Notes under the pieces: generated by a model | The model's database searches: none | The model's input: only the letters and a program-made list of their open reading frames with translations | What the model was told of the DNA's origin: nothing | Shown: in pieces, positions 2,313 through 58,345 of the stretch | How the letters are laid out: the number at the start of each line of letters is the position of its first letter | How positions within the stretch are numbered: position 1 is the first letter of the stretch | Source of the DNA: an uncultured Sphingomonas sp. | Lineage (GTDB): Bacteria > Pseudomonadota > Alphaproteobacteria > Sphingomonadales > Sphingomonadaceae | Reading direction: 5' to 3' | NCBI RefSeq assembly: GCF_913062585.1 | Contig: NZ_CAJXWX010000003.1 | Coordinates: 136,438-200,437 of the forward strand | DNA length: 64,000 nt | Made by a program: the position numbers and the translations under genes

Positions 2313-2339
2313 CATGTACCTTGCATAACAGGATACATG
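2313..2339. promoter_or_regulatory. candidate PadR operator
   Basis: CATGTACCT-N8-AGGATACATG inverted repeat (one bulge) 16 nt upstream of the padR start. Confidence 0.55.
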
Positions 2340-2355
2340 CCATTACCTAGGCCGC

Positions 2356-3391: not shown

Positions 3392-3401
3392 TGGCCTGGT
3401 G

Positions 3402-4867: not shown

Positions 4868-4991
4868 GATCCTGTCGCCCTTAGCGCAACCGCGCCTTTC
4901 ACGCAAAGGACAAGCATTGGGGGGCGAATCCCATCCTTCCCCGGCCCGATGGGGACGGAATGAAGGCAATCCGGCCCGACGTCGATCCAGC

Positions 4992-5723
4992 CTATCCCCC
5001 CTTCACCACCAGGTCGACATCCGTGCCGCCGTCACGCGGCGTGGCATAGACCATATACGCCGCCTCGCCCCGCGTGCCGCCCAGGACATGCTGCGCGCCG
5101 TCCATCTTGTGTTCGGCGGAATAGCCGGCCCGGCTGGCCTGGGTGTAATAATAGTCGATCACCTTTGCGACCGGCGCCGCGGTACGCAGGCTGACGATGC
5201 GGAAGGCGCAGTTGTTCGCGTCGTTGCCCGCCGCCTCGGCCACCTGCGCACCGGGATAGGGCGCCAGCGCCTGGGGCAGGCGTTGCGCCCAACCGGCCGA
5301 ATAACGCAGCCCCGACAGACAGGCGGCGTTGGCGGCCTGCTGCCCCGCCTTGGCCGCCAATGTATAGGCCCCGGCCGACGCCCGGCATTCCGGGCAATCG
5401 CGCGACGCGGCCGGGGCGGACTTCAGCGTGCGCGGATCGACGGGATCGACGGGCAGCGGCATGGAGGGCACCTGATCGCTCGGCGGCCGGTTGGGCGGGC
5501 GGACAGCATTGGCGTTGGCGCTCTGGGTCAGGCCGGGATCGACCATGATCTGCCCGGCCAGCGCCTCGCGCAGTTGCGGGTCGCGGGTCGGACTGCCGTC
5601 GTTCATCGCGGCGAGTTCGTTGTCGAGCGCATTCAGCTGCGCATCGTCATCCGGCTTGCCGCCGCACCCGGCGATCAGCAAACATGCCAGCGAAATCAGG
5701 GTCGGTCGCATCTTGGCCATCAT
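4992..5723 (-). CDS. hypothetical lipoprotein
   Basis: Lipobox LIAGC after a hydrophobic N-terminus; GC3-biased codons. Confidence 0.7.
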   Translation of the reverse strand: MMAKMRPTLISLACLLIAGCGGKPDDDAQLNALDNELAAMNDGSPTRDPQLREALAGQIMVDPGLTQSANANAVRPPNRPPSDQVPSMPLPVDPVDPRTLKSAPAASRDCPECRASAGAYTLAAKAGQQAANAACLSGLRYSAGWAQRLPQALAPYPGAQVAEAAGNDANNCAFRIVSLRTAAPVAKVIDYYYTQASRAGYSAEHKMDGAQHVLGGTRGEAAYMVYATPRDGGTDVDLVVKGG

Positions 5724-5836
5724 GCCCTCGCCTTAGCACAGGGATGCGACATCTTCCTTAACGGCCGAAACGCCATCACGCGATGCGGCCGCACCGGCGC
5801 TTGTATGGGCGGCGCGGCGACGCCATCTTGATCGCC

Positions 5837-6058
5837 ATGCTGAACCTGTTTTCCATCGTCATCGGCCTGGTCGCGCTGCTGCTCGGCATCGTGCCGTTCC
5901 TGCCCTTTTTCGCCTGGGGCTATTGGTTCGTCATCCCCATCGCGATCGTCGGCGCGGCGGTCGGCGCGCTCTCGTCACGAAACGGCGGGCGCAATCTCAA
6001 CCTGATCCTCATTTTGATCTTCGGCCTGCGCTTGATGCTGGGCGGCGGGTTCATTTAA
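5837..6058 (+). CDS. small membrane protein
   Basis: MLNLFSIVIG..., three hydrophobic stretches, followed by a terminator. Confidence 0.7.
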   Translation: MLNLFSIVIGLVALLLGIVPFLPFFAWGYWFVIPIAIVGAAVGALSSRNGGRNLNLILILIFGLRLMLGGGFI

Positions 6059-6062
6059 AAGG

Positions 6063-6096
6063 AAAAGGCCCGGCGGGTTTCCCCGCCGGGCCCTAT
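6063..6096. terminator. bidirectional intrinsic terminator
   Basis: GGCCCGGCGGG-TTTC-CCCGCCGGGCC hairpin between convergent stops, A-run on the left. Confidence 0.75.
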
Positions 6097-6115
6097 TGCC
6101 GGTCGCTCGGGCGAC

Positions 6116-6679
6116 TTAGCGGCAGCGGACCTGACCGCGGTCGATCTGCTGGCCGAGCAGCGCGCCGCCGCCCGCACCGATCACCGTGCCCAGCAGGCGC
6201 GAACCGCCACCCGCGATCACATTGCCCAGCGCGCCGCCGGCCAGACCGCCGATGACCAGACCGGTGGTGCCGTCATTGCGGCGGCAATAATAGCGGCCGT
6301 TCATGCCGCGATAGATGCGGTCGTTCCGGCCGAGCGCACGGGGCTGATAATAGCGACCGTCGCGATAATAGCGCTCGGGATAATAGCCGCGCTGACCCGG
6401 CTCGAAGCGATTATAGTCGTAGTTGCGCCAGCGAACGTTGCGCATGTCCTTGCGATAATCCTGGCGGGCATCGCGAATGTCCTCGCGATATTCGCGGTGG
6501 GCTTCGCGAACATCGCGGCGCGAGTCGGCCCGACGGACATCGCGGTTATAGTCACGACGGGCATCACGAACCTCGTCGCGATATTCCTGGCGCGCTTCCC
6601 AGCCATTGCGCTGAGCCTCGGCAGGAATGGCGGTAAAAGCGGTGGCGGCGATCGTCGCCGACAAGAGAGCGATACGCAT
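6116..6679 (-). CDS. glycine zipper 2TM domain secreted protein
   Basis: Signal peptide, R/D/Y repeats, YYCRRNDGTTGLVIGGLAGGALG...GAGGGALLG. Confidence 0.85.
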   Translation of the reverse strand: MRIALLSATIAATAFTAIPAEAQRNGWEARQEYRDEVRDARRDYNRDVRRADSRRDVREAHREYREDIRDARQDYRKDMRNVRWRNYDYNRFEPGQRGYYPERYYRDGRYYQPRALGRNDRIYRGMNGRYYCRRNDGTTGLVIGGLAGGALGNVIAGGGSRLLGTVIGAGGGALLGQQIDRGQVRCR

Positions 6680-6853
6680 TACTAAACTCCCGTTGAAGAT
6701 GGATATGAGAACCCGAGACCTCGCGGGATGTTGCGTGAACCCAAAACTACCTGCCATTCACTTCACAGACAGGCGCATGCGTTTGATTTTCTAAATAGAA
6801 AGGGCGCCACCCGGAGGTGACGCCCCTGTTTCCCGACGTCGCGGAAAAGGCCG

Positions 6854-7162
6854 TTAGCGGCAGCGGCGATTGCTGGTGCCGCGCTCGATCTCGCGACCCG
6901 CCAGCGCACCGACGGCGGCGCCGCCCAGCGTGCCCAGCGTACGGTCGCCGCGCGTGTCGATGGTGCGGCCCAGCAGCGCACCCGCGACGCCGCCGACCAC
7001 CAGGCCGGTGGTGCCGTCCGGCTTGCGGCAGCGGACGCGGCCGCGATCATCGCGCCACTCGCGATACTTGTAGCGACGCTGGGCGTCGGCGGCGGTGGTG
7101 GGGAGGACCAGCGCGGGGACGACCATCGCGGTGCAGCCCAGGGCAAGCATCAATTTCCGCAT
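6854..7162 (-). CDS. glycine zipper 2TM domain secreted protein
   Basis: Signal peptide, CRKPDGTTGLVVGGVAGALLGRTIDTRGDRTLG. Confidence 0.85.
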   Translation of the reverse strand: MRKLMLALGCTAMVVPALVLPTTAADAQRRYKYREWRDDRGRVRCRKPDGTTGLVVGGVAGALLGRTIDTRGDRTLGTLGGAAVGALAGREIERGTSNRRCR

Positions 7163-7299
7163 GACAAACTTCCTTCCTGATGTGTTCTGATGCCGTAACG
7201 TTCCAATTCTACTGTCTGTTGCATGAACGTCAGATAACGTCACGTTCATCGAAATGACGCCCTTTTCGGAAGCGGGGGCGGGCTCTAGGGTCGCCTGCG

Positions 7300-7926
7300 A
7301 TGCTGCCCCAACCGACCGCCATGCTGCCCGCCGTAATGCCCTGGCTCGACCTGGCGGGACTGGCCGTGTTCGCGGTTTCGGGCGCGCTGGCCGCGGCCAA
7401 GCATCGCCAGACCATGGTGACGCTGGTGTTCTTCGCGCTGATTACGGGGGTTGGCGGCGGCACGCTGCGCGACCTGCTGATCGACGCGCCGGTCTTCTGG
7501 GTGCATGATGCGCGGGTGCCCCTGGTCTGCCTGGTCGCGGCGGTGGCGGTCTGGGCGACGCCGGCGCGCTGGTGGCGGGGCAGCGCACTGGACTGGTTCG
7601 ATGCGGTGGGGCTGGCGGCCTATGCTGTGTACGGCGCGGCCAAGGCGAGCGGATATGGCATTCCCCCGATTCCGGCGGCGATGCTGGGGGTGGTGTCGGC
7701 CTGTGTCGGCGGCATCATCCGCGACGTCATCGCGGGCGAGCCTTCGATCCTGATGCGCCCCGAACTGTATGTCACCGCCGCCGCGCTGGCCTCGACCAGC
7801 TATGTGCTGCTGAGCGCGCTTGGCGTGCCGGGGGCCGGGCCGATCGCGGCGCTGGCGGGATTCGCCTTGCGCGGGGCCGCGATCCGGTATCGGCTCGCTT
7901 TGCCTGCCTATCCGGCCAAGGGGTAG
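7300..7926 (+). CDS. trimeric intracellular cation channel (TRIC/UPF0126) family protein
   Basis: Two repeats: FAVSGAL..TGVGGGTLRDLL and DAVGL..SACVGGIIRDVI; start may be 7321. Confidence 0.85.
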   Translation: MLPQPTAMLPAVMPWLDLAGLAVFAVSGALAAAKHRQTMVTLVFFALITGVGGGTLRDLLIDAPVFWVHDARVPLVCLVAAVAVWATPARWWRGSALDWFDAVGLAAYAVYGAAKASGYGIPPIPAAMLGVVSACVGGIIRDVIAGEPSILMRPELYVTAAALASTSYVLLSALGVPGAGPIAALAGFALRGAAIRYRLALPAYPAKG

Positions 7927-7950
7927 GATCGAGCGGTAGCGCCGGGGCGT

Positions 7951-8027
7951 GGCCTTCGATTTCGCTCAGGCTGAACGGAGCGAAGAATCATCCCCGCCTC
8001 CGTTCGGGCTGAGCGAAGTCGAAGCCC
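7951..8027. repeat. inverted pair of 28-bp REP-like units
   Basis: 7951-7978 and 8000-8027. Confidence 0.8.
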
Positions 8028-8038
8028 AAGGGAAACCC

Positions 8039-9442
8039 TCACCGCCCGAGCATCAACTCCGGCCGCACCACCCGGTCGAAGGTCGCCTCATCGACCAGCC
8101 CCAGTTCCAGCCCCGCCTCCTTCAGCGTCTGCCCCTTCTGATGCGCGTGCTTGGCGATCTTGGCGGCGTTGTCATAACCGATCTCGGGCGCGAGCGCGGT
8201 CACGAGCATCAGCGAGCGGTCGAGCAGTTCGGTGATCCGGTCGCGATTGACCGTCATCCCCTCGACGGTGCGCTCCGCGAAGCTCTCCATCCCGACCGAC
8301 AGCAGATGGACCGAGCGTAGGGCGTTCGCGCCGATCAACGGCTTGAAGACGTTCAGTTCCAGATGCCCCTGCAAGCCGCCGACCGTCACGGCGGCATTGT
8401 TACCGATCACCTGCGCGGCGACCATGGTCAGCATCTCGCACTGGGTCGGGTTGACCTTGCCCGGCATGATCGAGCTGCCCGGCTCATTGGCTGGCAGTTC
8501 CAGCTCGCCCAGCCCCGAGCGCGGGCCGGAGCCCAACAAGCGGATGTCGTTGGCGATCTTGGTCAGCGCCACCGCCAGCACGTTCAGCGTGCCGTGCAGG
8601 TCGACCAGCCCGTCATTGCTGGCCAGCGCCTCGAACTTGTTAGGCGCAGTGACGAAGTCCAGGCCCGTCGCCTCGGCGATTTCGGCGGCGATCGACTCGG
8701 CGAAACCGTTCGGCGCGTTCAGCCCGGTGCCGACCGCCGTCCCCCCTTGCGCCAGCGGCAGGATATTGCGGTGAAGCGTCCCCTCGATCCGGTCGCGGGC
8801 ATTGGCCAGCTGCTGCACATAGCCGGAAAATTCCTGGCCCAGCGTCAGCGGGGTCGCGTCCTGCAAATGGGTGCGGCCGATCTTGACGATGTCGTCCCAT
8901 GCCTTCGCCTTGGCATTCAGCGCGGCGTGCAGCCGGTCGAGCGCGGGGAAAAGCTGCTGCGTCACCGCCAGCGCAGCGGCGACATGAAGCGCGGTCGGGA
9001 AGGTGTCGTTGGACGACTGGCCGCGATTGACGTCGTCATTGGGGTGGACCGGCGATTTGCCGCCGCGCGTGCCGGTCAGCATCTCATTGGCGCGGCCCGC
9101 AATCACCTCATTGGCGTTCATGTTGGACTGGGTGCCGGAGCCCGTCTGCCAGATGACCAGCGGGAACTGGTCGTCATGCCGCCCGTCGATCACCTCCTGC
9201 GCCGCCGCCTCGATCGCATCGGCCTTGTCCGCCGACAGCCCGTGCCCGCGATTGATTCGCGCGGCGGCCTTTTTGACGATGGCCAGCGCATGGACGATGC
9301 CGATCGGCATCTGCTCGCGCGCGCCGAAGGGGAAGTTTTCCAGGCTGCGCTCGGTCTGCGCGCCCCAATAGGTGGTGGCGGGGACGTCGATCGGGCCGAT
9401 CGAGTCGGTTTCGGTGCGGGTAGCGGTGGGGGTCTGGGTCAT
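8039..9442 (-). CDS. fumC: class II fumarate hydratase
   Basis: [39 protein letters not shown]. Confidence 0.95.
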
Positions 9443-9490
9443 GGGCTAGGGACTCACCGGGTAGGGAATGGGTTCCCGGTGAATATCAAG

Positions 9491-9603
9491 CCCTCTCCCC
9501 TCCGGGGAGAGGGTTGGGTGAGGGGTTGAGGCTTGGCGAAACAGGCGGACTGCAGGTCCGACCCCAGCCCCTCACCCCGGCCCTCTCCCCGAGGGGGAGA
9601 GGG
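9491..9603. repeat. inverted pair of CCCTCTCCCC-N-GGGGAGAGGG palindromes
   Basis: 9491-9525 and 9568-9603 are near reverse complements. Confidence 0.8.
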
Positions 9604-9635
9604 AGAAGGGACTCGCGCCTCTGCGCGAACCGAAA

Positions 9636-10121
9636 TTACTTCTTCCGCTTGAAGTCCACCGCGACGACATTGCTGCCGTCCTCGACCGGCTTGGCGACGG
9701 GTTCGTCATTTTCGGCCGAACCGTGCGGATCGGGATCGCTCTGGGGATCGTCGGCGACGTGGAAGCCCAGCTCGAACTGAACCTCCGGGTCCTGGAAACG
9801 GGTGATCGCCGAATAGGGAATCACCAGCTTCGAGGGCACCTGGTTGAAGCTGAGGCCGACCGAGAAGCGATTCTCGTCCACCGTCAAGTCCCAGAAGCGA
9901 TTCTGCAGGACGATGGTCATCTCGTCCGGGAATCGCTCGACCAGCCGCTGCGGGATGTCGACGCCAGGCGCCTGGGTCTTGAAGGTGATGTAGAAATGAT
10001 GCGTGCCGGGCAGTTGCCCCGTCTCCGCCACCGGGCCGAGCACACGCCCCACCACGGCGCGCAGGGCCTCCTGCACGATGTCGTCATAGGGGATGAGGCT
10101 GTCGGGCAATCCTTCGGTCAT
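9636..10121 (-). CDS. sspB: SspB family ClpXP adaptor (alphaproteobacterial type)
   Basis: HHFYITFKT..PGV, FPDEMTIVLQ..FWDL, C-terminal NVVAVDFKRKK ClpX-binding-type tail. Confidence 0.85.
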   Translation of the reverse strand: MTEGLPDSLIPYDDIVQEALRAVVGRVLGPVAETGQLPGTHHFYITFKTQAPGVDIPQRLVERFPDEMTIVLQNRFWDLTVDENRFSVGLSFNQVPSKLVIPYSAITRFQDPEVQFELGFHVADDPQSDPDPHGSAENDEPVAKPVEDGSNVVAVDFKRKK

Positions 10122-10193
10122 GGCCCATGGACTAGCGGCCTTTGATCGCGGGTCAAGATTGCATGGGACGGATAGGTGTTTAAGGGAGGGGCC

Positions 10194-10781
10194 ATGCGCA
10201 CCGCCACCGTCCACCGCGCCACCGCGGAAACCGTCATCGACGTCACCGTCAATCTCGACGGCACCGGCGTCTATCAGAACGCCACCGGCATCGGGTTTCT
10301 CGACCATATGCTCGACCAGCTGTCGCGGCATTCGCTGATCGATCTTTCGGTCAAGGTCGAGGGCGACCTGCATATCGACGGGCACCACACCACCGAGGAC
10401 AGCGCGCTGGCGATCGGACAGGCCTTTGCCAAGGCGCTGGGCGACAAGCGCGGCATCTATCGGTACGGCGAAGCGCTGTCGCCGATGGACGAGGTGCTGA
10501 CCCGCACCGCGCTCGACATTTCGGGGCGGCCCTGGCTGGTGTGGAAGGTACCGTTCACCAACCCGATGCTCGGCACGCTCCAGACCGAGATGATCGAGCA
10601 CTGGTTCCACAGCTTCGCACAGGAGGCCGGGATCACGCTCCACGTCGAGCTGCTGCACGGCCACAACAACCATCACATCGCCGAGAGCGTCTTCAAGGGC
10701 CTGGCGCGTGCGCTGCGGATGGCGGTCGAGATCGACCCGCGCAAGGCCGACGCCATCCCCTCGACCAAGGGCATGCTGTGA
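10194..10781 (+). CDS. hisB: imidazoleglycerol-phosphate dehydratase
   Basis: [29 protein letters not shown]. Confidence 0.95.
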
Positions 10782-11383
10782 CGCTGGCGCTGATCGACAT
10801 CGAGTCGGGCAATCTCCACTCGGTCGACAATGCCCTGCGCGCGGCAGGGGCGAGCGATGTCGTCATCACCGCCGATCCGGATGTGATCGCCAAGGCCGAC
10901 CGGATCGTGCTGCCGGGCGTCGGCGCGTTCGGCGCGTGCGCGGCCAATCTGCGCGCCGTCGACGGGCTGGAAGAGGCGCTGCGCGAGGCCGCCCTCACCC
11001 GCGCCCGCCCCTTTCTGGGCATTTGCGTGGGCATGCAGCTGCTCGCCGACACCGGCGAGGAAATGGGGGAGCATCGCGGGCTTGGCTGGATCCGCGGCCG
11101 TGTGGCGCGACTCACGCCGTCCGATCCGGCGGCGAAGGTGCCGCATATGGGCTGGAACGATGTCCGCCCATTGCACGACCACCCGCTGATCGTGCCGGGC
11201 GAGGCCTATTTCCTCCACAGTTTTGCCTTTACCGGCGAGCATGTGCTGGCGACCACCGACCATGACGGCGCCGTCACCGCCGCGATCGGCCGCGACACGA
11301 TCGTCGGCGCGCAATTCCACCCCGAGAAGAGCCAGCGTTATGGCCTCTCCTTCCTCACCCGTTTCCTGGAGTGGCATCCGTGA
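10778..11383 (+). CDS. hisH: imidazole glycerol phosphate synthase, glutaminase subunit
   Basis: [21 protein letters not shown]; GTG start overlapping hisB. Confidence 0.95.
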
Positions 11384-12114
11384 GCCTGATCGTCTTTCCC
11401 GCCATCGACCTGAAGGGCGGCCAAGTGGTGCGTCTGGCCGAGGGCGATATGGACCGCGCGACCGTCTATGGCGACGATCCCACCCATCAGGCGATGCTCT
11501 TCGCCGAGGCGGGCGCGCAGCATCTGCACGTCGTCGACCTCGACGGCGCCTTTGCGGGCGAGTCGGTCAATGGCGAGGCGGTGCAGGCGATCGTCCAGGC
11601 GTTCCCCGGCCATGTCCAGCTGGGCGGCGGCATCCGTAACCCTGCGAATGTCGAGCGCTGGTTCGATCTGGGCGTCTCGCGCGTGGTGATCGGCACTGCG
11701 GCGCTGGAGAATCCCGACTTCGTGCGTGACATGGCCAAGGCCTATCCCGGTGGCATCGTCGTCGCGGTCGATGCCAAGGACGGCATGGTCGCCACGCGCG
11801 GCTGGGCAGACGTGTCGGACGTGTCGGTCGAGGATCTGGCGCGGCGGTTCGAGGATGCGGGCGTGGCCGCGCTCCTCTTTACGGACGTGGGCCGTGATGG
11901 GTTGCTCAAGGGCTGCAACGTGCCTGCAACCGTCGATCTGGCGCGCGCGGTGCGGATTCCCGTCATCGCCAGCGGCGGTGTGGCGGGAATCGGCGACATT
12001 CATATGCTGGCCCTCCATCATCAGGACGGGGTCGAGGGCGTCATCACCGGCCGCGCGCTCTATGACGGGCGGCTCGATCTGGCGGCGGCCTTGTCGGTGG
12101 CGGCGGCCGCATGA
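11380..12114 (+). CDS. hisA: ProFAR isomerase
   Basis: [33 protein letters not shown]. Confidence 0.95.
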
Positions 12115-12872
12115 CCGTCCGTGCGCGTGTCATCCCCTGTCTCGACGTCGCGAACGGCCGGGTGGTCAAGGGCGTCAACTTCGTCGACCTGATCGATGCG
12201 GGCGATCCCGTCGAACAGGCGCGCGCCTATGACGCCGCCGGCGCGGACGAGCTGTGCTTCCTCGACATCACCGCCAGCCATGAGGCGCGCGGCACCATCC
12301 TGGACGTGGTGCGGCGGACGGCGGCGGTATGCTTCATGCCGCTGACCGTGGGCGGCGGGGTCCGCACGGCGGAGGATGCGCGTGCGCTGTTGCTGGCAGG
12401 GGCGGACAAGGTGGCGGTCAACTCCGCCGCCGTCAGCCGCCCGGAGGTCGTCTCCGACATTGCCGAGCGATTCGGCAGCCAGTGCTGCGTCGCCAGCGTC
12501 GACGCACGGCGGACGGCAGATGGCTGGGAGGTGTTCACCCATGGCGGACGGCGCGCGACCGGGATCGACGCGGTCGAGCATGCGCTGCGCCTGGCGGAGC
12601 TGGGTGCTGGCGAACTCCTCGTCACCTCGATGGACCGGGACGGGACGCGGGGCGGATATGACCTGGAGTTGATCCGCACCATCGCCGATCGGACCAGCGT
12701 GCCGGTGGTGGCGAGCGGCGGAGTCGGCGGGCTGGACGATCTGGTCGCGGGGGTGCGTGACGGTCATGCCTCGGCGGTGCTGGCGGCGTCGATCTTCCAC
12801 TTCGGTGATGCGTCGATCGCGGATGCGCACCGGGCGCTGGCAGCGGCGGGGGTGCCGGTTCGGGCACATTGA
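12111..12872 (+). CDS. hisF: imidazole glycerol phosphate synthase, cyclase subunit
   Basis: [38 protein letters not shown]. Confidence 0.95.
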
Positions 12873-13242
12873 TTTCACGCGAAGCCGCTAAGCCGCGAAG
12901 GTTTTTGGGGTTCGCGCGGAGGCGCGGAGAGTTTGGATTTGGGGGGCTGCATGGCGGCTCATGCACGGTGTTTGTCTTCCGATTGCCACGCCGCCCTACC
13001 CCCGTTCACGCTGAGCGAAGTCGAAGCGTACGCCCTGCCCTTTGCCAGACGGGATTCCCTTGGCCTTCGACTTCGCTCGGGCTGAACGGCGGTGGGATTA
13101 CGGGCAACCGCCATCGACCGGGAGACCTTCCCACGTCAGTGAGGCAGACCGCCGCGCCCCCTCCAAGACCAAACTCTCTGCGCCTCCGCGCCTCTGCGCG
13201 AACCAAAAAAACCGTCGCGCCTTCGCGTCTTCGCGCGAACTC
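12873..13242. repeat. nested composite palindromic repeat
   Basis: Outer inverted arms (CGCGAAG..CGCGGAGGCGCGGAG / CTCCGCGCCTCTGCG..CTTCGCG) enclose an inverted pair of the 28-bp REP-like unit. Confidence 0.75.
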
Positions 13243-13288
13243 AAATCCCCCGGATGACCCGCTCCCGCGACGCTGCTAAACTCCCTCC

Positions 13289-13444
13289 ATGCCACTCGCG
13301 ATCATGACCCCTGCCAACGGCCATAGCGGTATCATCCGCGTGCGCACCCATCCGGAGTTGTCGGACATCGCGCTGTTCGTCTTTGCGATCGGCGCGATCT
13401 GGTTCCTGCGTCGTGCCATGCGCCGCCGCAATCGCAAGGATTGA
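13289..13444 (+). CDS. 51-aa PEP-CTERM-like microprotein (not in ORF track)
   Basis: Manual translation ends HPELSDIALFVFAIGAIWFLRRAMRRRNRKD: PE, a TM helix and a basic tail; start uncertain (13289 or 13304). Confidence 0.6.
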   Translation: MPLAIMTPANGHSGIIRVRTHPELSDIALFVFAIGAIWFLRRAMRRRNRKD

Positions 13445-13476
13445 CGCGGACGCGTCGGCGCGTCACCCAGCCGCGC

Positions 13477-13791
13477 ATGGACATGCTCGACCGCCTCGAA
13501 GCCACGATCCGCGCGCGCCGCGACGAAGGTGACGCCGCCACCTCCTATGCCGCCAGCCTGTTCGCCAAGGGACGGCCGAAGATCGCGCAGAAACTGGGCG
13601 AGGAAGCGGTCGAAACCGTCATCGCCGCCATGGCCCAGCCCGACAAGATCGTGTCGGAGGCCGCCGACCTCATGTTCCACCTGATCGTGCTGCTGGCCGA
13701 CACCGGCCATTCGCTGGACGATGTCCGCGCCGAACTCGCCCGGCGCGAGGGCGTGTCGGGGCATGACGAAAAGGCCGCGCGCGCCCGCTGA
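13477..13791 (+). CDS. hisE: phosphoribosyl-ATP pyrophosphatase
   Basis: SYAASL...IAQKLGEEAVE, SEAADLMFHL, EL.RREG.SG. Confidence 0.93.
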   Translation: MDMLDRLEATIRARRDEGDAATSYAASLFAKGRPKIAQKLGEEAVETVIAAMAQPDKIVSEAADLMFHLIVLLADTGHSLDDVRAELARREGVSGHDEKAARAR

Positions 13792-13808
13792 TCCCTCGGA
13801 GACCATTG

Positions 13809-14186
13809 ATGCCGATCGACGCCACCCTGCCCTATGACGACCAGAATGTCTTCGCGAAGATCCTGCGCGGCGAGATTCCGTCGACCCGCGTCTATGAAGA
13901 CGAGTGGGCGGTCGCCTTCCACGACATCGCGCCGCACGCGCCGACCCATATCCTGGTGATCCCGCGCGGCGCGTATGTGTCGTGGGACGATTTCTCGACC
14001 CGAGCGAGCGAAGCGGAGATCGCCGGTTTCGTCCGTGCCGTCGGCCATGTCGCGCGCGAAGCGGGGGCGGTTCAGCCGGGATACCGGCTGCTGGCGAATA
14101 TCGGGCCCGATGCCGGACAGGAAGTGCCGCATCTCCATGTCCATATCCTGGCGGGCAGGCCGCTCGGCCCGATGCTGGCGCGCTGA
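13809..14186 (+). CDS. HIT family nucleotide-binding protein
   Basis: NVFAKILRGEIP, HLHVHIL histidine triad. Confidence 0.92.
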   Translation: MPIDATLPYDDQNVFAKILRGEIPSTRVYEDEWAVAFHDIAPHAPTHILVIPRGAYVSWDDFSTRASEAEIAGFVRAVGHVAREAGAVQPGYRLLANIGPDAGQEVPHLHVHILAGRPLGPMLAR

Positions 14187-49285: not shown

Positions 49286-49361
49286 AGGAGTGTAGCTCAG
49301 TTGGTAGAGCATCGGTCTCCAAAACCGAGGGCCCACGGTTCGAGTCCGTGCACTCCTGCCA
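49286..49361 (+). tRNA. trnW: tRNA-Trp (CCA)
   Basis: AGGAGTG acceptor/CACTCCT, D-loop AGTTGGTA, anticodon loop CTCCAAA, T-loop GTTCGAG, encoded CCA. Confidence 0.96.
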
Positions 49362-50003: not shown

Positions 50004-50780
50004 CTAAGTCAGCGGTGACCTGGATGCTACAACCAGCCCGAGCAGGTGCTGCGTGAATGCATCGCCTCCCTTGCTGTAGGCCATGCGTCCCCAGTGATCC
50101 CAATTGTCGACCCTGGCCGCGATCCACGCGAACAGATCGTCGCGTACGCTCTGGTCATCGAACGCCAGGGACCAAGTCACTCGCCTCACCGGCATCCTGA
50201 CGGGACTTCCGTTCGCCATCGAGGTCAGGGTGATCGCGTGCGACTGCCCAACCGTCTCGCGCGCGAAGACGTGACGCCGAAAGCCAACCGCGCGTTCGAA
50301 ATCCTGCAGCGCCTGCTCCCGGTCCCGATCGGATGGATTCCGGACGGCCGCGACCACCGCTGCCATGACGTCCGCGATAGGCAGATCCTCCCACTCTGGA
50401 TCGCGGGTAGCCACCAGCATCATCAGCACCGACCGACCCTCGGGGCTTAGATCGTCCGTCGACCCGCGCTGCAGCAGACCGACGGTACCGAGCCAGCACA
50501 TATAGAAAGTCCAGAGAACCAGGTTGCCGCGGAAGAGATCAAATCGGCGTTCGCTCTCACCACGTTCTGCCATATCGACCGACAGAAGGACCCGGAGGAG
50601 GAATTCGAGCTGCTCCCGTACGGCGTGCGTTTCGGGAAGGCCCAACTCGTCCCGCCAAAAGGCATCGCGCACCGACGTCCACTTGCGGCCATCCTCGTCC
50701 TCAAAATGAGCGCCGTTGGCTCGCAGCCACCAGCCCCACGGCAGATCGCCAGGCCGGTGCCGTTCCCGCGCCGTCGCCAT
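50004..50780 (-). CDS. hypothetical protein, 258 aa (Trp-rich)
   Basis: Long ORF translationally coupled (TAATG) to the upstream gene. Confidence 0.75.
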   Translation of the reverse strand: MATARERHRPGDLPWGWWLRANGAHFEDEDGRKWTSVRDAFWRDELGLPETHAVREQLEFLLRVLLSVDMAERGESERRFDLFRGNLVLWTFYMCWLGTVGLLQRGSTDDLSPEGRSVLMMLVATRDPEWEDLPIADVMAAVVAAVRNPSDRDREQALQDFERAVGFRRHVFARETVGQSHAITLTSMANGSPVRMPVRRVTWSLAFDDQSVRDDLFAWIAARVDNWDHWGRMAYSKGGDAFTQHLLGLVVASRSPLT

Positions 50781-51592
50781 TATTCGGCCCTCGGTTCGAG
50801 GCCGATGGGCGGGAGCGGCGGCCCGTCGCGGGCCGGGACTGGACGACCGTCGCGGATCGCGGCGAGCTGCGCAGCCAGGTTGCGGATCTCACGCACGACA
50901 TAGCCGTCGTCACGATACCTTGCCTCGATCCCGGTGCCTGCCGAGCTCTGGCGATCGCGCAGTTCGCCGGGCACGACGTCGTAGACATGGTTGCAGTCGA
51001 AGCCGAACCACCACTGGTGCGGGCTGGCGCGATGATCGGTCGCATGCTGCAGAGGCACCTCGCCAACGACGACGTGGCAGATGCGGCGGTATTCGGTGAT
51101 CAGGCGCCGCTTAGGGTTTGGGCCGTCGTCGCAGATGCGCGAGTAGGTCAGGCCACCGTGCACCTCGATCCCGAGGCTCGCCGGCACCGCGTCATGGTCC
51201 CAGCCGAAGAGGGGATGGGTGGACGGCACCCCGACGAAGCCGCTCAGGTAGCCCTCGGGATGCCCGCGCATCATGATGCACTCCAGGCCGGTCGCCTCGT
51301 CGACCCACGAGACCTTGTCTGCCTCGCCGAGCCATGGACCATGAGAGCGCGGCATCTCCCGCTTCGCATAGAAGATCTCGGCTTCCGGCACCAAGTCACG
51401 GCTCGTCGCATAGGCGCGGCCGGTGATGCGGACCACGCCGTCCTGGCTGACGAACTCGCCGCCGGTCCCCGACACCTTGGCCAGATCGACGCCCGACCCG
51501 ACCGCATCCGCCAATGCGCCCTTCCCTACCTTCGCGAGCGGCAGCGGCTTCTGCACCGCGACGGCCGTCGACCTGCTCTTCTTCGTGGCCAT
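50780..51592 (-). CDS. hypothetical protein with HGGLTY / WWFGFDCNH motifs
   Basis: GFVGVPSTHP, VHGGLTYS, WWFGFDCNH..D; start MATKKS inferred. Confidence 0.75.
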   Translation of the reverse strand: MATKKSRSTAVAVQKPLPLAKVGKGALADAVGSGVDLAKVSGTGGEFVSQDGVVRITGRAYATSRDLVPEAEIFYAKREMPRSHGPWLGEADKVSWVDEATGLECIMMRGHPEGYLSGFVGVPSTHPLFGWDHDAVPASLGIEVHGGLTYSRICDDGPNPKRRLITEYRRICHVVVGEVPLQHATDHRASPHQWWFGFDCNHVYDVVPGELRDRQSSAGTGIEARYRDDGYVVREIRNLAAQLAAIRDGRPVPARDGPPLPPIGLEPRAE

Positions 51593-51773
51593 GACTTTCA
51601 CCTTTCCTGCTGTGGTTCGATCGATCAGTTGGTCGAGGGGCAGCGCCGCCCTTCGGCGCCTACGCCTATCGGATCGTCCCTGGCCGCCCGCCCACAGCAC
51701 CTGCGCAGCCTGCGGATGGTCCTTCGCTGACGGTCGAGATGAAGCGCGCGCCTACCGGCACTGACGAAGGCGC

Positions 51774-52655
51774 TCACAGGAAGCGGTCCGCGGCCGTGAC
51801 CATCTCGAAGCGGGGCGCCATGGCTCTGGCACCGTGCCCCGCGGCGTAGACGTTCGTCGCCAGCCAGAATTCTTCCGCCGTGCGCGCGTCATCCGCGACC
51901 TCGGTCCACCACGTCCGGCGCTCCGGATCCCACCTATAGCCCCGCGCCTTCAGTGCATCCTTGGCGTCAAAGCTGGCCCCATCGGCGTACACCATCCAGC
52001 TGGGTGCCCTCATGCGACCGAGCAGTTCCGCGAGCACGGTCGTGCCATCGTCCGCGCGGTGACGGAGCAGCTGCACGAGGGCGTCGACGTCCGTGGCGGC
52101 CCGATGGGGCCGGAAGAAGTATCCGGCCTGCTGGAGCAGGTAGCCGAGGGCCCGGCCATCGAAGCCTCGCCCGCGCCAGTCGACCTGTTGGAAGGAGCAA
52201 GCCCAGTCTAGTCCGCGTACGTCCGGCAGGCGACGTTCGACATAGGGGCGGTCGAATGCGGCGTGGTGCGCCACGACGCATGACGCCGTGCGGAGCATGC
52301 GCGTCGCCTCGGCATCGTCGATCCGCCGACCGGCGACGTCGTCGTCAGTCAGCCCGGTGATCGCGACCGTCTCCGGCGTCAGCGGGTGGCCCGGATCCTC
52401 CGTCCACGAGGAGATGGGGCCGATGTCGGTAATGACGCCATCGGCATCGAAACGGAACGGGCGGATCGCTAGTTCGACGACCGCGCCTAGGTGGACAACG
52501 GTGCCCGTCGTCTCCACGTCGACCGCGACGCCGATGGCGGTGTCATGATCGTCGCCATCGCCGGTGGGGCCTTCGCGCACGTCGAGGCTGTGCAGGACGC
52601 GCGTCTTCTCGTCGCCAGCCGCACCAATGCGGCTGGCCGATGCCAGCTTTTCCAT
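51774..52655 (-). CDS. DEDDh 3'-5' exonuclease (Pol III epsilon-like)
   Basis: ExoI VDVETTG, ExoII AHHAAFD, ExoIII HRAATD. Confidence 0.9.
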   Translation of the reverse strand: MEKLASASRIGAAGDEKTRVLHSLDVREGPTGDGDDHDTAIGVAVDVETTGTVVHLGAVVELAIRPFRFDADGVITDIGPISSWTEDPGHPLTPETVAITGLTDDDVAGRRIDDAEATRMLRTASCVVAHHAAFDRPYVERRLPDVRGLDWACSFQQVDWRGRGFDGRALGYLLQQAGYFFRPHRAATDVDALVQLLRHRADDGTTVLAELLGRMRAPSWMVYADGASFDAKDALKARGYRWDPERRTWWTEVADDARTAEEFWLATNVYAAGHGARAMAPRFEMVTAADRFL

Positions 52656-52704
52656 GTCGTTCTCCGGTGATCATGCCAGGCCGTGCCCGGCGGTTACGCG
52701 AACC

Positions 52705-53436
52705 TTAGGCTTCGAGGCGCTGCTCGGTGTCGTACGAGAAGGAGGCGTATCGCGGCTCGTCGCTCGCCAACTCTACCGAACGCAGCAGTTCGGCGACCGC
52801 GCCCGGCACGAGAGCGATGGCTAGCGGCAAATAGGGGTGAAAACCTTCACGAATCTCCGCCAGGTCGATCACATCCTCGCCGAATCTAGCGCGCAGGCGC
52901 TGCACGACCTCGGCCGGGTGACGCGCCACCGAAGCGTGAAAGGCCTGCAGTACGACGCCGTTTCCCTCCCAGGCGATCGTCGCGCAGTAGAGCGATGGCC
53001 TCGCCGCCAGTCTGTGCCTTCCGCTGCGACCGCGCCTCGGCCGCGAGAGATGCGGAGTGTCGCCGTCACCATCGGGGGCTACGAGCCGGTCGAGCATGGC
53101 GGGATCGGCGTCCACCCCGAGCGAAAGGCCGTGCAGGACGATCGCGCGGACGAAGTGTTCCCGGTCGAGGCACGCCTCGATCGCCGGAGCCCCATCAAAG
53201 ATACGGCGAGGCGCGAGCATCCATCCCACTGGATCGATCGGGTTTGCCTCCCGCTGGAAGCGGGCACCAGCCTCAGCGGCAACCGTCACGACGCGGCAGA
53301 GGGCTCGACGCGTCGTGACGACGGTCTCGTCGCCGGGCATATCGTCATCCAACGGATCTTCGAAGGTAAACTGTGGAACCGGCACCACTGTGCTCGGCAT
53401 GTTCGACATTACGGTTGCATGCATGGTCATCTCCAT
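52705..53436 (-). CDS. hypothetical protein, possible Xre/MbcA/ParS-like toxin-binding segment
   Basis: PVGWMLAPRRIFDGAPAIEAC resembles the W..P...L.G..P motif; start could be 53424 or 53406. Confidence 0.6.
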   Translation of the reverse strand: MEMTMHATVMSNMPSTVVPVPQFTFEDPLDDDMPGDETVVTTRRALCRVVTVAAEAGARFQREANPIDPVGWMLAPRRIFDGAPAIEACLDREHFVRAIVLHGLSLGVDADPAMLDRLVAPDGDGDTPHLSRPRRGRSGRHRLAARPSLYCATIAWEGNGVVLQAFHASVARHPAEVVQRLRARFGEDVIDLAEIREGFHPYLPLAIALVPGAVAELLRSVELASDEPRYASFSYDTEQRLEA

Positions 53437-53513
53437 GTCCCCCGAATCCTGATCACGTTCCCGTCGCTGTGCGGTCTGTTCGGGAACGCGGTTAAGAATG
53501 GTGACACTGATTT

Positions 53514-53537
53514 ATATGTCAATAAGTCTGGACATAT
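53514..53537. promoter_or_regulatory. palindromic operator in divergent promoter region
   Basis: ATATGTC-N10-GACATAT perfect 7-bp inverted repeat. Confidence 0.55.
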
Positions 53538-53625
53538 TGAGATGATTTTGCCGGTGAATACCGCATTAACTATTTTTAGGGCCTCCACCACTTGCGATGC
53601 AAAAAATGTCTATTAATCTAGAGAT

Positions 53626-53973
53626 ATGGACCAGATTTCTGCCATTCAGCTGATGAGTGCCTTGGCCCAACCTACGAGAATGGCGGTGTTTCTCACATTG
53701 GCAAAGCATGGGGTGGAAGGGCTACCGGTCGGCGAACTAGCGCGGCTTATGGATACTCCTCCAAACACGATGTCGACCCATCTTTCGATCCTTGCTCGTG
53801 CAGGTGCAGTCGTCGCCAACCGGGACGGGCGGGTGGTAAGCTACAAAGTGCTTCCAGCCGCTGTCCGCGACCTCGCGCTATTCCTTGTGATGGGCAGCTG
53901 TGGGGGCGCCAAAAACCTAAGCGACAGTTTCGCGACCGCGCTGGACGAAGCATTTGCTGCAAACAGCCACTAG
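53626..53973 (+). CDS. ArsR/SmtB family transcriptional regulator
   Basis: ALAQPTRMAVF..L, VGELA, NTMSTHLSILARAG, RDGR.V.Y. Confidence 0.88.
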   Translation: MDQISAIQLMSALAQPTRMAVFLTLAKHGVEGLPVGELARLMDTPPNTMSTHLSILARAGAVVANRDGRVVSYKVLPAAVRDLALFLVMGSCGGAKNLSDSFATALDEAFAANSH

Positions 53974-54577
53974 GTGCCGAGAGCATCGGCGCGATAAGTC
54001 GGCACGAGCACTGGCGATCGTCACCCGTGGGTATCCGCATGCGCGGGGAATGCAATGTATCAATTATTATCGATCGCAGCCTGTAGGTCTGTGCCGTCAA
54101 TTGCCGACGTCTCAGTGGGAATGATTGGGGTCAGGGCTCGTTGATCTCAGCCAGAGGATGAAGGTGGCAGCGAGAGCAACGACGAAAGAGGCCGTGGGGC
54201 CGCGACGATAGCGGGTGGCAACGCGGGACAAGTTTTTAGGCAGCCGAACATGAAGCGATGCGGCAACGACCCCTTCCGCGGCGCTTGTCGTGCCGGACGC
54301 TAGTGGCTTAGTTCTAGTGATTTGTCCCTCCTGACACACCTGGAAAGTTTCGTCGGCGCATACGCGACGGTTCCGACCGCTCTTTGTCGCTGCATTGGCC
54401 GCGATACCTACCGGCCTATCGCTCACCGCTAAAATGAGGGTGATTCCGGTTCGATCGAGGGAATGCCGTAAAAACAAATGAAAGCTGATTTCCCCGAATT
54501 TCCTATCAGGAATTAATTTCCTAATACCATCTCGATTGCTAATCCGTATCGATTACAAGGGGAGGATACATAAATCG

Positions 54578-56224
54578 ATGGCGACGAACGTTCAGCAACT
54601 TCCACGAGGAGCCAACGATTCGGGGACGGAAAGCGATGGCCGTGGCATCATCCAGGCCAATCGCTCGAGTGAAATCTTCTTTGCCGTCGTTGGGCCGGTC
54701 GGTGCCGGAGCTTCACGCGCCCGAGATTCGCTTGACCGGGCCTGTCGCGAAGCAGGTTATAAAGTGGAGACGGTCAAGGTCAGTTCGCTCATCGCACAAT
54801 GGGGCGAGGCCAACCAATCTCCAGTTCCGGCGAATCTTTCACCGATCGATAAGGTTCGTCATCTGCAAGATCTAGGCGACCGGATGCGTGCCACAGACCC
54901 GACCAGGGTCGCTCGCGCAACGCTGGCCAAGATCGCCAGCCTGCGCGCCGCCCGGATCGGCAAGACGTTCACCCAGGGTGATGTCGTCAAGCCGGGTCCT
55001 GAGAAGGTGGCCTACATCATCGACTCGATCCGGCATCCGGCGGAGACGAGCCTGTTTCGTCGAACCTATGCCAACGCCTTCGCCCTGGTCGGAGTTGTCT
55101 GTGAGGAAAAGGAGAGGAAGAACCGCATCCTCGACAAGCTCTTCACCGGCCCTCAGCGACGAGACGCCGACCTGATCGCCGCAGCAGAAGCGTTCATAAG
55201 CCGAGATGCTGAAGACGAAAACGCCTCCCATGGCCAGCACGTACGGGATGCATTCTTCGAGGCCGACTTCTTCGTCGACAATACGCTGCAGGACCAGATC
55301 GACGAGAAGCAGTTCCTCGACGACCCGCTGGCCCGTCTCGTCAGTATCATCTCCCATGATAAGATAGAGCGGCCGACGATCGAGGAGACCGCCATGCATC
55401 ATGCGCATTCAGCGCGGGTCCGAAGCGCCTGCCTATCGCGACAGGTTGGTTCCGCCCTCGTGGACCGCGATGGTACCGTCGTCGCGACGGGTACGAATGA
55501 AGTGCCCCGCGCGGGCGGCGGGGTCTATGGCGAACGACCGCTGCTAGCCGACGAGCCTGATCATCGCTGCGCCTTTCGCGAAACCGCCTTCTGCAGCAGC
55601 AACGTCCAGCAGAACAGGATCATCAACGAGCTGATTGATTCGATCGATGAACTCAAGGCAGTGGCCGACCGATCGGCGTTGGTCAGCAAGCTGCGCGGTA
55701 CCGCAGTGGGGCAGCTCATCGAGTTCAGCCGGGCGGTTCACGCGGAGATGGATGCACTGCTTTCGGCAGGGCGTGAAGGCATATCGACCGTCGGAACACG
55801 TCTTTTCGTGACGACGTTTCCATGCCACTATTGCGCCCGTCACGTCGTCAGCGCGGGTGTTTACGAGGTGCAGTTCATCGAACCCTATCCTAAGAGCCTC
55901 GCCCTCGACCTCCACCAGGATGCGATCGCGATCGAGGAGCAGGACTGGCTACCGCCGGAGGAGATCGGGATGGCCGAAGCGAAGAGGCGTAAGACCGTGG
56001 CCGATCAGACGGAGCGTGCAGCGCCACGAACCGGTCGCGTGCTGTTCCGCCCCTTCGTGGGCGTTGCGCCCCGCCTCTATCTCAGGGCCTTCGAAAAGAC
56101 GCGTAGATTGAAGGACAAAAATACGGGAGACATGAATATCCAGCCCCCCGAATGGGGAGACGAATGGTCGCCGTTCACCGCGGCCTACCCCGAACTTGAA
56201 GCCGTATTGACCAAATCGTTATGA
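54578..56224 (+). CDS. anti-phage dCTP/dCMP deaminase (AvcD-like): P-loop kinase-like domain plus zinc deaminase
   Basis: AVVGPVGAGAS and DSIRHPAE in the N-domain; SACLSRQVG, TGTNEVP, HAEMDAL, PCHYC, EPYPKS in the C-domain; GGAGG RBS. Confidence 0.9.
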   Translation: MATNVQQLPRGANDSGTESDGRGIIQANRSSEIFFAVVGPVGAGASRARDSLDRACREAGYKVETVKVSSLIAQWGEANQSPVPANLSPIDKVRHLQDLGDRMRATDPTRVARATLAKIASLRAARIGKTFTQGDVVKPGPEKVAYIIDSIRHPAETSLFRRTYANAFALVGVVCEEKERKNRILDKLFTGPQRRDADLIAAAEAFISRDAEDENASHGQHVRDAFFEADFFVDNTLQDQIDEKQFLDDPLARLVSIISHDKIERPTIEETAMHHAHSARVRSACLSRQVGSALVDRDGTVVATGTNEVPRAGGGVYGERPLLADEPDHRCAFRETAFCSSNVQQNRIINELIDSIDELKAVADRSALVSKLRGTAVGQLIEFSRAVHAEMDALLSAGREGISTVGTRLFVTTFPCHYCARHVVSAGVYEVQFIEPYPKSLALDLHQDAIAIEEQDWLPPEEIGMAEAKRRKTVADQTERAAPRTGRVLFRPFVGVAPRLYLRAFEKTRRLKDKNTGDMNIQPPEWGDEWSPFTAAYPELEAVLTKSL

Positions 56225-56742
56225 ACGTAAGCTATCTCGAGTTTCCCAACCACGTCTCGGACGTTCAGGCCAACATGGCTCATCACGTCGACCATCTCGC
56301 GCGCCACGACGACCCCCAGCTCGAACTCGATCTGGGGGATCGGGCCTGTCGCATCATGAAGATCGCAGCCACCGAATCACTTCACGGTCAGACCCTATCG
56401 GCTCTGATCGACCAGGTTTCCCCCGAATTCGTGCTCGACCTTCGAGACGTCCTGCGCTTCAATCTTCCCGGGCTGTCACGGGACGTGTTCTTCCACATGC
56501 TTTCCGCTCGCGGCGTCCACTATGCGCGTGTTCCGATCGGTTGGCATAGCATCTCGCCCAAGGCGGTGACGGCGGGCGCTCCCCTGCCTGCGCGCCTTCA
56601 GCACGAGGCCATCGAGCGCTGGGGGGGCAATCTGGTCCTTCTGGTGTCGCGCAACGAGCATGCCCTTCATACCCAGGCCATGCTGAACATGGCTCTGTCT
56701 TCCCATCGCTCCAGAGGGTGGCGGATCGAGCGGGTGTCCTGA
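56221..56742 (+). CDS. hypothetical protein, 173 aa, degenerate DUF488-like
   Basis: ATGA overlap with the deaminase stop; FVLDLRDVLRF..GLSR..F..ML..RGVHY pattern. Confidence 0.7.
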   Translation: MNVSYLEFPNHVSDVQANMAHHVDHLARHDDPQLELDLGDRACRIMKIAATESLHGQTLSALIDQVSPEFVLDLRDVLRFNLPGLSRDVFFHMLSARGVHYARVPIGWHSISPKAVTAGAPLPARLQHEAIERWGGNLVLLVSRNEHALHTQAMLNMALSSHRSRGWRIERVS

Positions 56743-56941
56743 CGCCTGCCCTGGGGCAACTCGTATGTGTCGCTCCCCAATACGCTGAATTCGAATCTTG
56801 GGCATCGTGCACAGGCTAACCATTCGATAGACTGGGAAAAGTTCGAAACGGCCTCATCCGGCATGGTCCTGATGCGACGTTTCCGATAAGACTCTTTTTA
56901 GGGACAGGCCGGGGGGCCAAGGTCCGCTTTCGGATGGCGGA

Positions 56942-58345
56942 ATGATCAGGACACGACCTAGCAGCATCTTCGACAGGATCGTCATCTGGTCTTTCGATCG
57001 GCCTTTGTCGGGTCTGACGCGATATACTGTCGCAGCCTTGGTGATAGTTCTGGTCGCGGCGGCACGCATCCTGTTCGTGCCCGACGAACTTCCATGGCTG
57101 CTGTTCATTCCTGCGGCGATTGGCGTTGCGCTGGTGCTTGGACAGGGAGCCGGGCTGTTTGCCGCCGCGCTGTCCACGGCTGCCGGTGCCCTTTCGATCG
57201 GAAGCGCCTCCAACGACTATTGGTTGCCGGAACCGCAGTGGGTGGCGGCAGGCCTCTTCGTCGTGATCCTGACGGGGATGGTCATGCTTGCCGGCGAACT
57301 GCGCGAATCCATGCGTCGGTCGGTCTCCCTAAATGCCGAGCTGGTCGAGCGGGAGCGTTCGTCAGCGGAACGCGAGGCCTTCCTGTCCAGCGTCCTTGCG
57401 GCGTCGACTGACTGCATCAAGGTCCTGGATCTGGACGGCAACCTGACCTTCATGAGCGAAGGCGGCATGAAGGTGATGGACATCAGCGACTTCAACGCGG
57501 TTCGTGGCTGTCCCTGGCCGGAATTCCTCAAGGACGCCGGCTCGGTCCAGGCGCGCGCGGCACTTGATGCGGCAGCCGAGGGGCGTTCGTCGCATTTCGA
57601 GGCGGCGGCGGACACCCATATCGGCATTCCCAAATGGTGGTCGGTGTCGGTGTCGCCGATCCCCGGCCCAGATGGTCACCCCGCCCGCGTCCTGTCGGTG
57701 TCGCGCGACCACACCGCGCTGCACGAAGCGCGCGAGCAGCAGCAGTTGCTGAACGGCGAACTGAGCCACCGGCTCAAGAATGTCCTGACCCTAGTCCAGT
57801 CCATCGCCAATCAGACGCTGCGCGGAGCGCATAGCGTCGAGGACGCTTCGGCCGCCTTCTCATCGAGACTGGCATCGCTCGGACGGGCTACCGACGTTTT
57901 GACCACCACCGCCTGGCAGCAGGCGGAGCTTCACGACGTCGTCGATGCCGGCCTGTCGGCCGTGTCCGGCATGAAGGACAGGATCACGATCGATGGCCCA
58001 CGCATCCGATTGAACTCGCAGGTCGCTCTGGCGTTGACCCTGGCTCTTCACGAACTGGCGACGAACGCGACCAAGTATGGCGCGCTCAGCAAAGACACGG
58101 GATCGGTAGCTCTGCGATGGCAGGTGAATGGCAACAACGGAGCTTCCTGCTTCCATCTGATCTGGCAGGAACGGGATGGGCCGCCGGTCGTACGACCGAC
58201 GCAGCGCGGCTTTGGCTCACGTATGATTGAGCGCTCGCTCGGGGCCTATTTCAGAGGCAGGACGGTACTGGATTTCCCGGCCGAAGGCGTCGTGTTCCGG
58301 ATCGATGCGCCACTTGGCGACACCGGCGAACTGATCGACAGCTGA
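56942..58345 (+). CDS. membrane-bound PAS + HWE histidine kinase
   Basis: N-terminal TM helices, PAS (DCIKVLDLDG), ELSHRLKN, HELATNATKYG, WQE. Confidence 0.92.
   Translation: MIRTRPSSIFDRIVIWSFDRPLSGLTRYTVAALVIVLVAAARILFVPDELPWLLFIPAAIGVALVLGQGAGLFAAALSTAAGALSIGSASNDYWLPEPQWVAAGLFVVILTGMVMLAGELRESMRRSVSLNAELVERERSSAEREAFLSSVLAASTDCIKVLDLDGNLTFMSEGGMKVMDISDFNAVRGCPWPEFLKDAGSVQARAALDAAAEGRSSHFEAAADTHIGIPKWWSVSVSPIPGPDGHPARVLSVSRDHTALHEAREQQQLLNGELSHRLKNVLTLVQSIANQTLRGAHSVEDASAAFSSRLASLGRATDVLTTTAWQQAELHDVVDAGLSAVSGMKDRITIDGPRIRLNSQVALALTLALHELATNATKYGALSKDTGSVALRWQVNGNNGASCFHLIWQERDGPPVVRPTQRGFGSRMIERSLGAYFRGRTVLDFPAEGVVFRIDAPLGDTGELIDS

Follow-up and report, generated by a model that had tools for sequence, protein, structure and literature searches.

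A two-gene dCTP deaminase locus

In current catalogues, anti-phage defence by deoxycytidine triphosphate (dCTP) deaminases appears either as one gene (PADLOC, NCBIfam) or together with a small RNA (sRNA; the AvcID systems), and the way in which it senses infection is understood only in part. The original preprint on this defence describes a single gene and does not mention a partner (Tal et al., bioRxiv 10.1101/2021.04.26.441389), and in AvcD relatives of the enzyme the labile AvcI RNA suppresses activity until a phage shuts off host transcription (PMC10511110). The locus described here lies in a 64,000-nucleotide (nt) stretch of DNA from an uncultured Sphingomonas sp. (RefSeq assembly GCF_913062585.1, contig NZ_CAJXWX010000003.1, positions 136,438 to 200,437 of the forward strand), which is referred to below as the window and is numbered from its first letter. 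It consists of a gene encoding an anti-phage dCTP deaminase of 548 amino acids (aa) and, overlapping its stop codon, a gene encoding a 173-aa protein of an unnamed family, hereafter the partner. The genomic evidence for the pair, a putative two-gene form of the known dCTP-deaminase defence, is solid: in all the loci examined, homologues of the partner adjoin dCTP deaminases without exception, and the deaminases that carry a partner form a single clade. The literature searched, outside which the 2023 study of Burroughs and Aravind (NAR Genom Bioinform 5:lqad029) fell, contains no description of a protein partner of a dCTP deaminase.

A comparison with the single-gene dCTP deaminases reveals that the effector of the window is likewise full-length, scores above the curated family cut-off, has the same kinase-like and zinc-deaminase architecture and lies in an apparently acquired islet of low G+C content, whereas in its clade a second, translationally coupled gene is obligate and the enzyme ends in a C-terminal tail specific to that clade. 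With AvcID, a type III toxin-antitoxin system, the pair shares a homologous effector and, as proposed below, an inhibitor encoded at the same locus that holds the enzyme off until infection (PMC10511110). However, AvcI is an sRNA encoded upstream of its enzyme, whereas the candidate regulator in the window is a 173-aa protein encoded downstream, and no conserved upstream RNA is detected. The main features of the pair are as follows.

54560 to 54566, plus strand: GGGAGGA, a Shine-Dalgarno-like sequence 11 nt 5' of the deaminase ATG
54578 to 56224, plus strand: anti-phage dCTP deaminase gene, 548 aa, with a kinase-like N-terminal domain and a zinc deaminase domain
56033 to 56221, plus strand: C-terminal tail of the deaminase, residues 486-548 (GRVLFRPFVGVAPRLY...PEWGDEWSPF..YPELEAVLTKSL), recognised in alignments of partnered and unpartnered deaminases
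56221 to 56224, plus strand: ATGA stop/start overlap with translational coupling, read from the sequence, with equivalent junctions in relatives
56221 to 56742, plus strand: partner gene, 173 aa, of an unnamed family, placed by profile and homologue searches and seen only behind one deaminase clade

The upstream gene had been taken for a dCTP deaminase in the original prediction, which was made from the sequence of the window alone, and this identity is borne out by the PADLOC dCTPase match to the 548-aa protein (1.5e-151), by a score of 413.9 bits against the NCBIfam model NF041025 'anti-phage dCTP deaminase' (curated cut-off 400; profile positions 1-437) and by intact catalytic motifs. The Pfam domain dCMP_cyt_deam_1 covers residues 269-433, and the zinc-deaminase motifs HAE (RAVHAEMDAL) and PCxxC (FPCHYCARH) are both preserved and align with those of the relatives. 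The start codon is placed at ATG 54578, an alternative TTG being present at 54536; this choice is consistent with the N-termini (MATKPQ...) of the relatives in the alignment. The stop codon is the TGA at 56222-56224, and the start codon of the partner (ATG, 56221-56223) overlaps it exactly as the original prediction had noted, followed by a frame that is open over 56221-56742 for 173 aa.

Linkage of the partner to one deaminase clade

The earlier proposal that homologues of the partner would sit directly downstream of dCTP deaminases was examined in the homologous loci and, free of ascertainment through the partner, in a sample of 401 genomes of the window's phylum that was searched with both a deaminase profile and a partner profile. 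The linkage holds throughout, with the partner located directly behind a full-length or contig-truncated deaminase in 24 of 24 further loci, including those of members at 22-27% identity. A dCMP_cyt_deam_1 protein of 551-600 aa is encoded immediately upstream and on the same strand in the contigs of close homologues (L001-L007) and at two very distant loci (P0046 and P0062, 22% identical), and the same arrangement is present in six metagenome loci and in Sphingobium estronivorans AXB, the lone match among GTDB species genomes. In the RefSeq record of a plasmid of Rhizobium sp. CIAT894, the two genes overlap by 4 nt and are named 'anti-phage dCTP deaminase' and 'hypothetical protein'. A tight stop/start junction is observed wherever it was read (the window, 13 loci and the Rhizobium plasmid), and the junctions of the relatives take the form ATGA, GTGA, TGATG or TAG-nn-ATG.

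In the genome sample, the deaminase profile matches 25 of the 401 genomes, five of which, besides the window's own, carry the partner directly downstream. The partner profile recovers exactly these six genomes, with seven loci, all of them (7/7) beside a deaminase; the seventh is a second copy in one genome, where the deaminase is cut by the contig end. One genome of the sample (G114) carries two deaminase-partner pairs on different contigs (L067 and L072).

A maximum-likelihood tree was built from 28 deaminases, of which 17 are partnered and 11 unpartnered. The 17 partnered enzymes form one clade with a support of 100/100 and a long stem of 2.64, and the 11 unpartnered enzymes, one of them from the window's own genus, fall outside it. 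Twelve of the partnered sequences had been found via the partner; the other five, which were found via the deaminase, also lie inside the clade, and no unpartnered sequence is placed there. Two features are common to the partnered deaminases and missing from the unpartnered ones: the C-terminal tail (PEWGDEWSPF..YPELEAALTK) and an insertion that follows the deaminase domain. In the alignments, the final ~36 residues are kept only in the partnered clade, and the NF041025 model stops at residue 512. The tail is perhaps a docking site for the partner. Since the whole clade carries an obligate, unannotated partner, half of the system escapes detection tools in this clade.

The partner gene itself is, judging from its conservation, a real conserved gene. 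A word-indexed search returned eight homologues of 57-99% identity and a second such search only three more members, while a profile run exhaustively against 1.84 billion representatives yielded 59 clusters at E<=1e-3, nearly all of 150-200 aa. The longest credible member is at most 286 aa; a 506-aa sequence (P0055) is a repetitive match in nine stretches. Against five close relatives, the nonsynonymous divergence (dN) of the partner is 0.23-0.40, with the synonymous divergence (dS) saturated. Its mean identity is 36% compared with 62% for the deaminase, which indicates that the partner evolves much faster; it is nevertheless under purifying selection, and the distances of the two proteins are correlated (r = 0.92). 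Fast divergence under purifying selection combined with correlated distances is typical of regulators and antitoxins.

Sequence and predicted structure of the partner family

The partner has no match in Pfam, PADLOC, NCBIfam or PHROG, and sequence searches of the Protein Data Bank (PDB) with the single protein and with the family profile give chance matches only. Across the 59 sequences, the positions Q33, G56, P68, D73, R75, R79, F80, R87 and Y101 are near-invariant, as is D81, and H55 is frequent; the median isoelectric point (pI) of the family is 8.4. The following regions are distinguished.

56221 to 56343, plus strand: residues 1-41, variable and predicted to be disordered, with the motif Q33-L-x-L (predicted local distance difference test, pLDDT, below 50 in both AlphaFold2 models)
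56344 to 56739, plus strand: residues 42-173, a predicted alpha/beta core (beta-alpha-beta-alpha-beta ... alpha-beta-alpha-beta; AlphaFold2)
56401 to 56535, plus strand: residues 61-105, a DUF488-like motif block with D73, R75, R79, F80, R87 and Y101 (hhalign)

The motif around Q33 is the sole conserved short motif of the disordered N-terminus, with the glutamine present in 97% of the family members. The AlphaFold2 model built from 17 sequences has a mean pLDDT of 78, rising to about 90 in the core. Foldseek finds nothing at E<=1e-3 for the partner in the PDB (two models) or in BFVD, and the PDB template modelling (TM) scores do not exceed 0.44. Most of the weak matches among the top 50 in the PDB fall into two groups, the cysteine phosphatases (PRL-1/3, DUSP26, laforin, PFA-DSP1, Siw14, the baculovirus RNA 5'-phosphatase and DUF442) and the tetrapyrrole or diphthine methylases. 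The fold assignment is tentative because all of these matches are below threshold. Burroughs and Aravind reportedly united the cysteine phosphatases, the tetrapyrrole/diphthine methylases and DUF488 in a Rhodanese-phosphatase superfamily in 2023, and the placement of DUF488 there, given as background in the original prediction, goes back to their study.

The relationship to DUF488 is clearer at the level of profiles. A DUF488 alignment was built from 18 genome matches and compared with the partner family by profile-profile alignment in hhalign. The original prediction had matched EFVLDLRDVLRFNLPGLSRDVFFHMLSARGVHY to the DUF488 pattern by eye, and hhalign reproduces this match over the same block (residues 61-105 of the query) with a probability of 78% and a score of 34.9; none of 40 column-shuffled templates exceeds 16.6, and reversing the template gives 7.3. 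The most divergent subgroup of the family reaches 87% and a score of 39.6, with an alignment that extends to the last strand. As a calibration, DUF488 and DUF488-N3i score 28 by the same procedure, which is below the 35-40 of the partner family. The relationship to DUF488 that had been predicted is thus recovered at profile level (78-87%), while the structure matches are weak, all below threshold and mostly of the cysteine-phosphatase type.

The similarity is limited to the N-terminal half of the partner (D-x-R...RFD...R...Y). In the original prediction, NLVLLVSRNEHALHT was additionally aligned with the catalytic region of DUF488 (aLlC.E...CHR), with its cysteines lost. The loss of the cysteines stands, as no position of the family has more than 15% Cys, but the alignment has no statistical support: it is obtained only when forced, has zero confidence and is positional. 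The C-terminal C-x-E ... C-H-R motif is absent from the partner family, and the topologically equivalent segment reads LLV-[SK]-x-x-H-A. Against the Pfam DUF488 model (PF04343; gathering score 22.2 bits), the partner of the window has no match at E<=1; two divergent members give sub-threshold matches, the best of all 59 being 18.4 bits (E 0.0035). Since the partner fails the Pfam model and has neither C.E...CHR nor a conserved Cys, it should not be filed as a strict member of DUF488. The partner family is best described, from its profile similarity, as a putative separate, remote and cysteine-less branch related to core DUF488: it matches that family through the N-terminal block (D-[VL]-R, R-F-D/P-x-S-R, R, Y), whereas its additional disordered N-terminus and its exclusive association with deaminases set it apart. 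Both the predicted linkage to deaminases and, at profile level, the predicted relationship to DUF488 have therefore held.

Pfam already recognises inactive subclades of DUF488 (DUF488-N3a/N3i: PF22751, PF22752). Kinship of the partner with DUF488-N3i (PF22752) was considered and rejected, as the hhalign score of 13.9 is at the null level and neither the 59 members nor the partner loci of the 401 genomes have a Pfam match to it. A canonical DUF488 protein is present elsewhere in the genome of the window (C6:57488-57844, 105.9 bits), so the partner does not take the place of an ordinary member of that family.

Proposed function of the pair

We tentatively propose, with a confidence that falls somewhat short of even, that the two genes constitute one horizontally acquired anti-phage nucleotide-depletion module in which the partner would act as an inhibitory, antitoxin-like subunit. 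By analogy with its family, for which the activity is established, the deaminase of the window would be the effector, converting dCTP/dCMP-type nucleotides to deoxyuridine nucleotides and thereby starving phage DNA synthesis. The partner is read as something other than a DUF488-type enzyme because it retains the D73/R75/R79/R87/Y101 block but conserves no Cys; it may be a regulatory subunit without catalytic activity, obligate and co-translated with the enzyme, whose ancestor was a DUF488-type domain and which lost the cysteine/histidine motif. It would bind the deaminase, perhaps via the clade-specific acidic C-terminal tail, and keep the enzyme inactive in uninfected cells. Release could follow one of two routes: the faster-evolving partner, with its disordered N-terminus, might be lost once host gene expression stops, or its conserved D/R-rich pocket might bind a phage-derived ligand. 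The physical binding, the inhibition and the trigger are all steps that we infer.

The proposal places the pair near the toxin-first type II toxin-antitoxin pairs (HigBA, MqsRA) and the polymorphic deaminase toxin-immunity pairs, in which a small, fast-evolving protein is likewise coupled downstream of a potentially harmful enzyme. In contrast to these, no DNA-binding domain was found in the partner, the deaminase is cytoplasmic rather than secreted, and neutralisation is here only proposed. Several points weigh against an inhibitory partner. The toxin-first gene order is the less common one in type II pairs. No DNA-binding domain for autoregulation (helix-turn-helix, HTH; ribbon-helix-helix, RHH; or AbrB) is detected in the partner, neither INPHARED nor pattern scans of IMG/VR revealed a phage-encoded homologue or mimic of it, and no orphan partner genes are seen. 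An activator on which the enzyme depends would account just as well for the strict co-occurrence and co-evolution, the charged pocket that is conserved could be catalytic, and the non-coding stretch of about 600 nt upstream of the deaminase makes an additional RNA regulator possible.

The alternative that survives best gives the partner a positive role, as regulator or sensor, which we consider less likely than not but nearly as likely as an inhibitory one. The deaminase would then be inactive alone, and the pocket (D-x-R/RFD/R) would switch the enzyme on after binding a phage cue, which might be a nucleotide, the end of a nucleic acid or an RNA. The conserved part of the partner is indeed the ligand-facing N-terminal motif block of DUF488, although we know of no ligand for that family. 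Strict co-occurrence with the clade, the clade-specific tail of the deaminase and the fast evolution of the partner, as expected of a phage-facing component, would also agree with such a role. However, the relatives act without a protein partner (bioRxiv 10.1101/2021.04.26.441389; AvcID, PMC10511110), and no data here tell activation from inhibition. Somewhat more doubtful is a specific proposal in which the partner would be a DUF488-derived pseudo-enzyme that senses infection directly, its D/R-rich pocket licensing the deaminase on binding a nucleotide, nucleic-acid end or RNA of phage origin; if true, the dCTP-deaminase defence family would gain its first defined protein sensor, and a role would have been assigned to a DUF488-type domain for the first time.

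It is improbable that the partner is itself an accessory enzyme, its DUF488 scaffold bearing a new active site, that would act on nucleotides or DNA, for instance by processing the deoxyuridine (dU) nucleotides or modifying nucleic-acid ends, in a two-step pathway with the deaminase. D73, R75, R79, D81, R87 and Y101, together with the frequent H55, could form a phosphate-binding or catalytic site, and Burroughs and Aravind (2023) are said to predict that the DUF488 clade carries out phosphate transfer and to describe members of the superfamily whose active sites have been relocated. The partner nevertheless lacks the Cys/His motif by which active DUF488 is defined, such rapid divergence is unusual for a metabolic enzyme, and inactive subclades of DUF488 are already recognised in Pfam.

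A still slighter probability is given to the partner as an RNA- or nucleic-acid-binding adaptor that would tether an AvcI-like non-coding RNA, or another nucleic acid, to the deaminase and so combine RNA and protein regulation. DUF488 was reportedly grouped by Burroughs and Aravind (2023) with the RNA-binding C-terminal domain of RapZ, but kinship of the partner family with RapZ_C is rejected here, the hhalign score of 10.6 being at the null level. The basic median pI of the family and the region upstream of the deaminase (53974-54577, about 600 nt), which contains no credible gene and has AT-rich ATTTCC repeats near 54488-54522, would suit an adaptor, as would the control of AvcD-type enzymes by an sRNA (PMC10511110). 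Against this, the upstream region is not conserved in five close relatives, save for a short AT-rich patch ~70 nt before the start, and two partnered loci leave hardly any upstream space for an RNA the size of AvcI, with a gap of 7 nt in L029 and 96 nt in L001. No Rfam family matches at the locus, and a consensus scan of it detects no sigma-70-like promoter and terminator-like hairpins at chance level only. The short gaps, the unconserved upstream regions and the lack of an Rfam match weigh mildly for a protein rather than an RNA regulator.

That the downstream reading frame has no function, or belongs to a gene that merely hitch-hikes and is unrelated to the deaminase, as its lack of a database family and its sole annotation as 'hypothetical protein' might suggest, is a reading of negligible probability that the linkage and conservation data have already effectively refuted, given 59 clusters down to 22% identity, a constant position, purifying selection and a confident predicted fold.

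For this clade, a deaminase cloned alone may show misleading toxicity or no defence, and the regulatory step becomes open to study with a protein handle. The cysteine-less DUF488 / rhodanese-phosphatase branch also gains a concrete biological context; to our knowledge, none of its members has an experimentally established function.

Genomic surroundings

The G+C content is 55-60% around the pair (53000-57000) compared with 63-68% in the flanks, and a tRNA-Trp gene (49286-49361) lies upstream of a region of hypothetical, defence and sensor genes that includes the pair. The low G+C content and the upstream tRNA-Trp gene suggest an acquired islet. Next to the pair, on the minus strand at 50780-53436, are three genes of the same orientation encoding proteins of 306, 293 and 243 aa; the 306- and 243-aa proteins have no Pfam match, and the 293-aa protein is an exonuclease of the RNase_T/DEDDh type (Pfam 2.7e-06).

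Among the relatives, one 9.4-kb metagenome contig (L006, at 3-401 and 8033-8908, and L007) has its deaminase split over both ends, the arrangement of a circular or tandem element. Genes for an integrase and for a DNA methylase with a restriction enzyme of the MvaI/BcnI type lie on this element too, as does an SNase-like gene, and the element may be a small mobile defence island. In a distant branch (L029-L032), the pair follows a Rib_5-P_isom_A/DeoRC-like gene after a gap of 7 nt, which suggests a three-gene operon. On the 274-kb plasmid of Rhizobium sp. CIAT894 (NZ_CP020949; L073, record 1742-14173), the pair lies beside ThiF-adenylyltransferase, multiubiquitin, HTH and ImmA/IrrE peptidase genes, and this setting is a dense defence neighbourhood.

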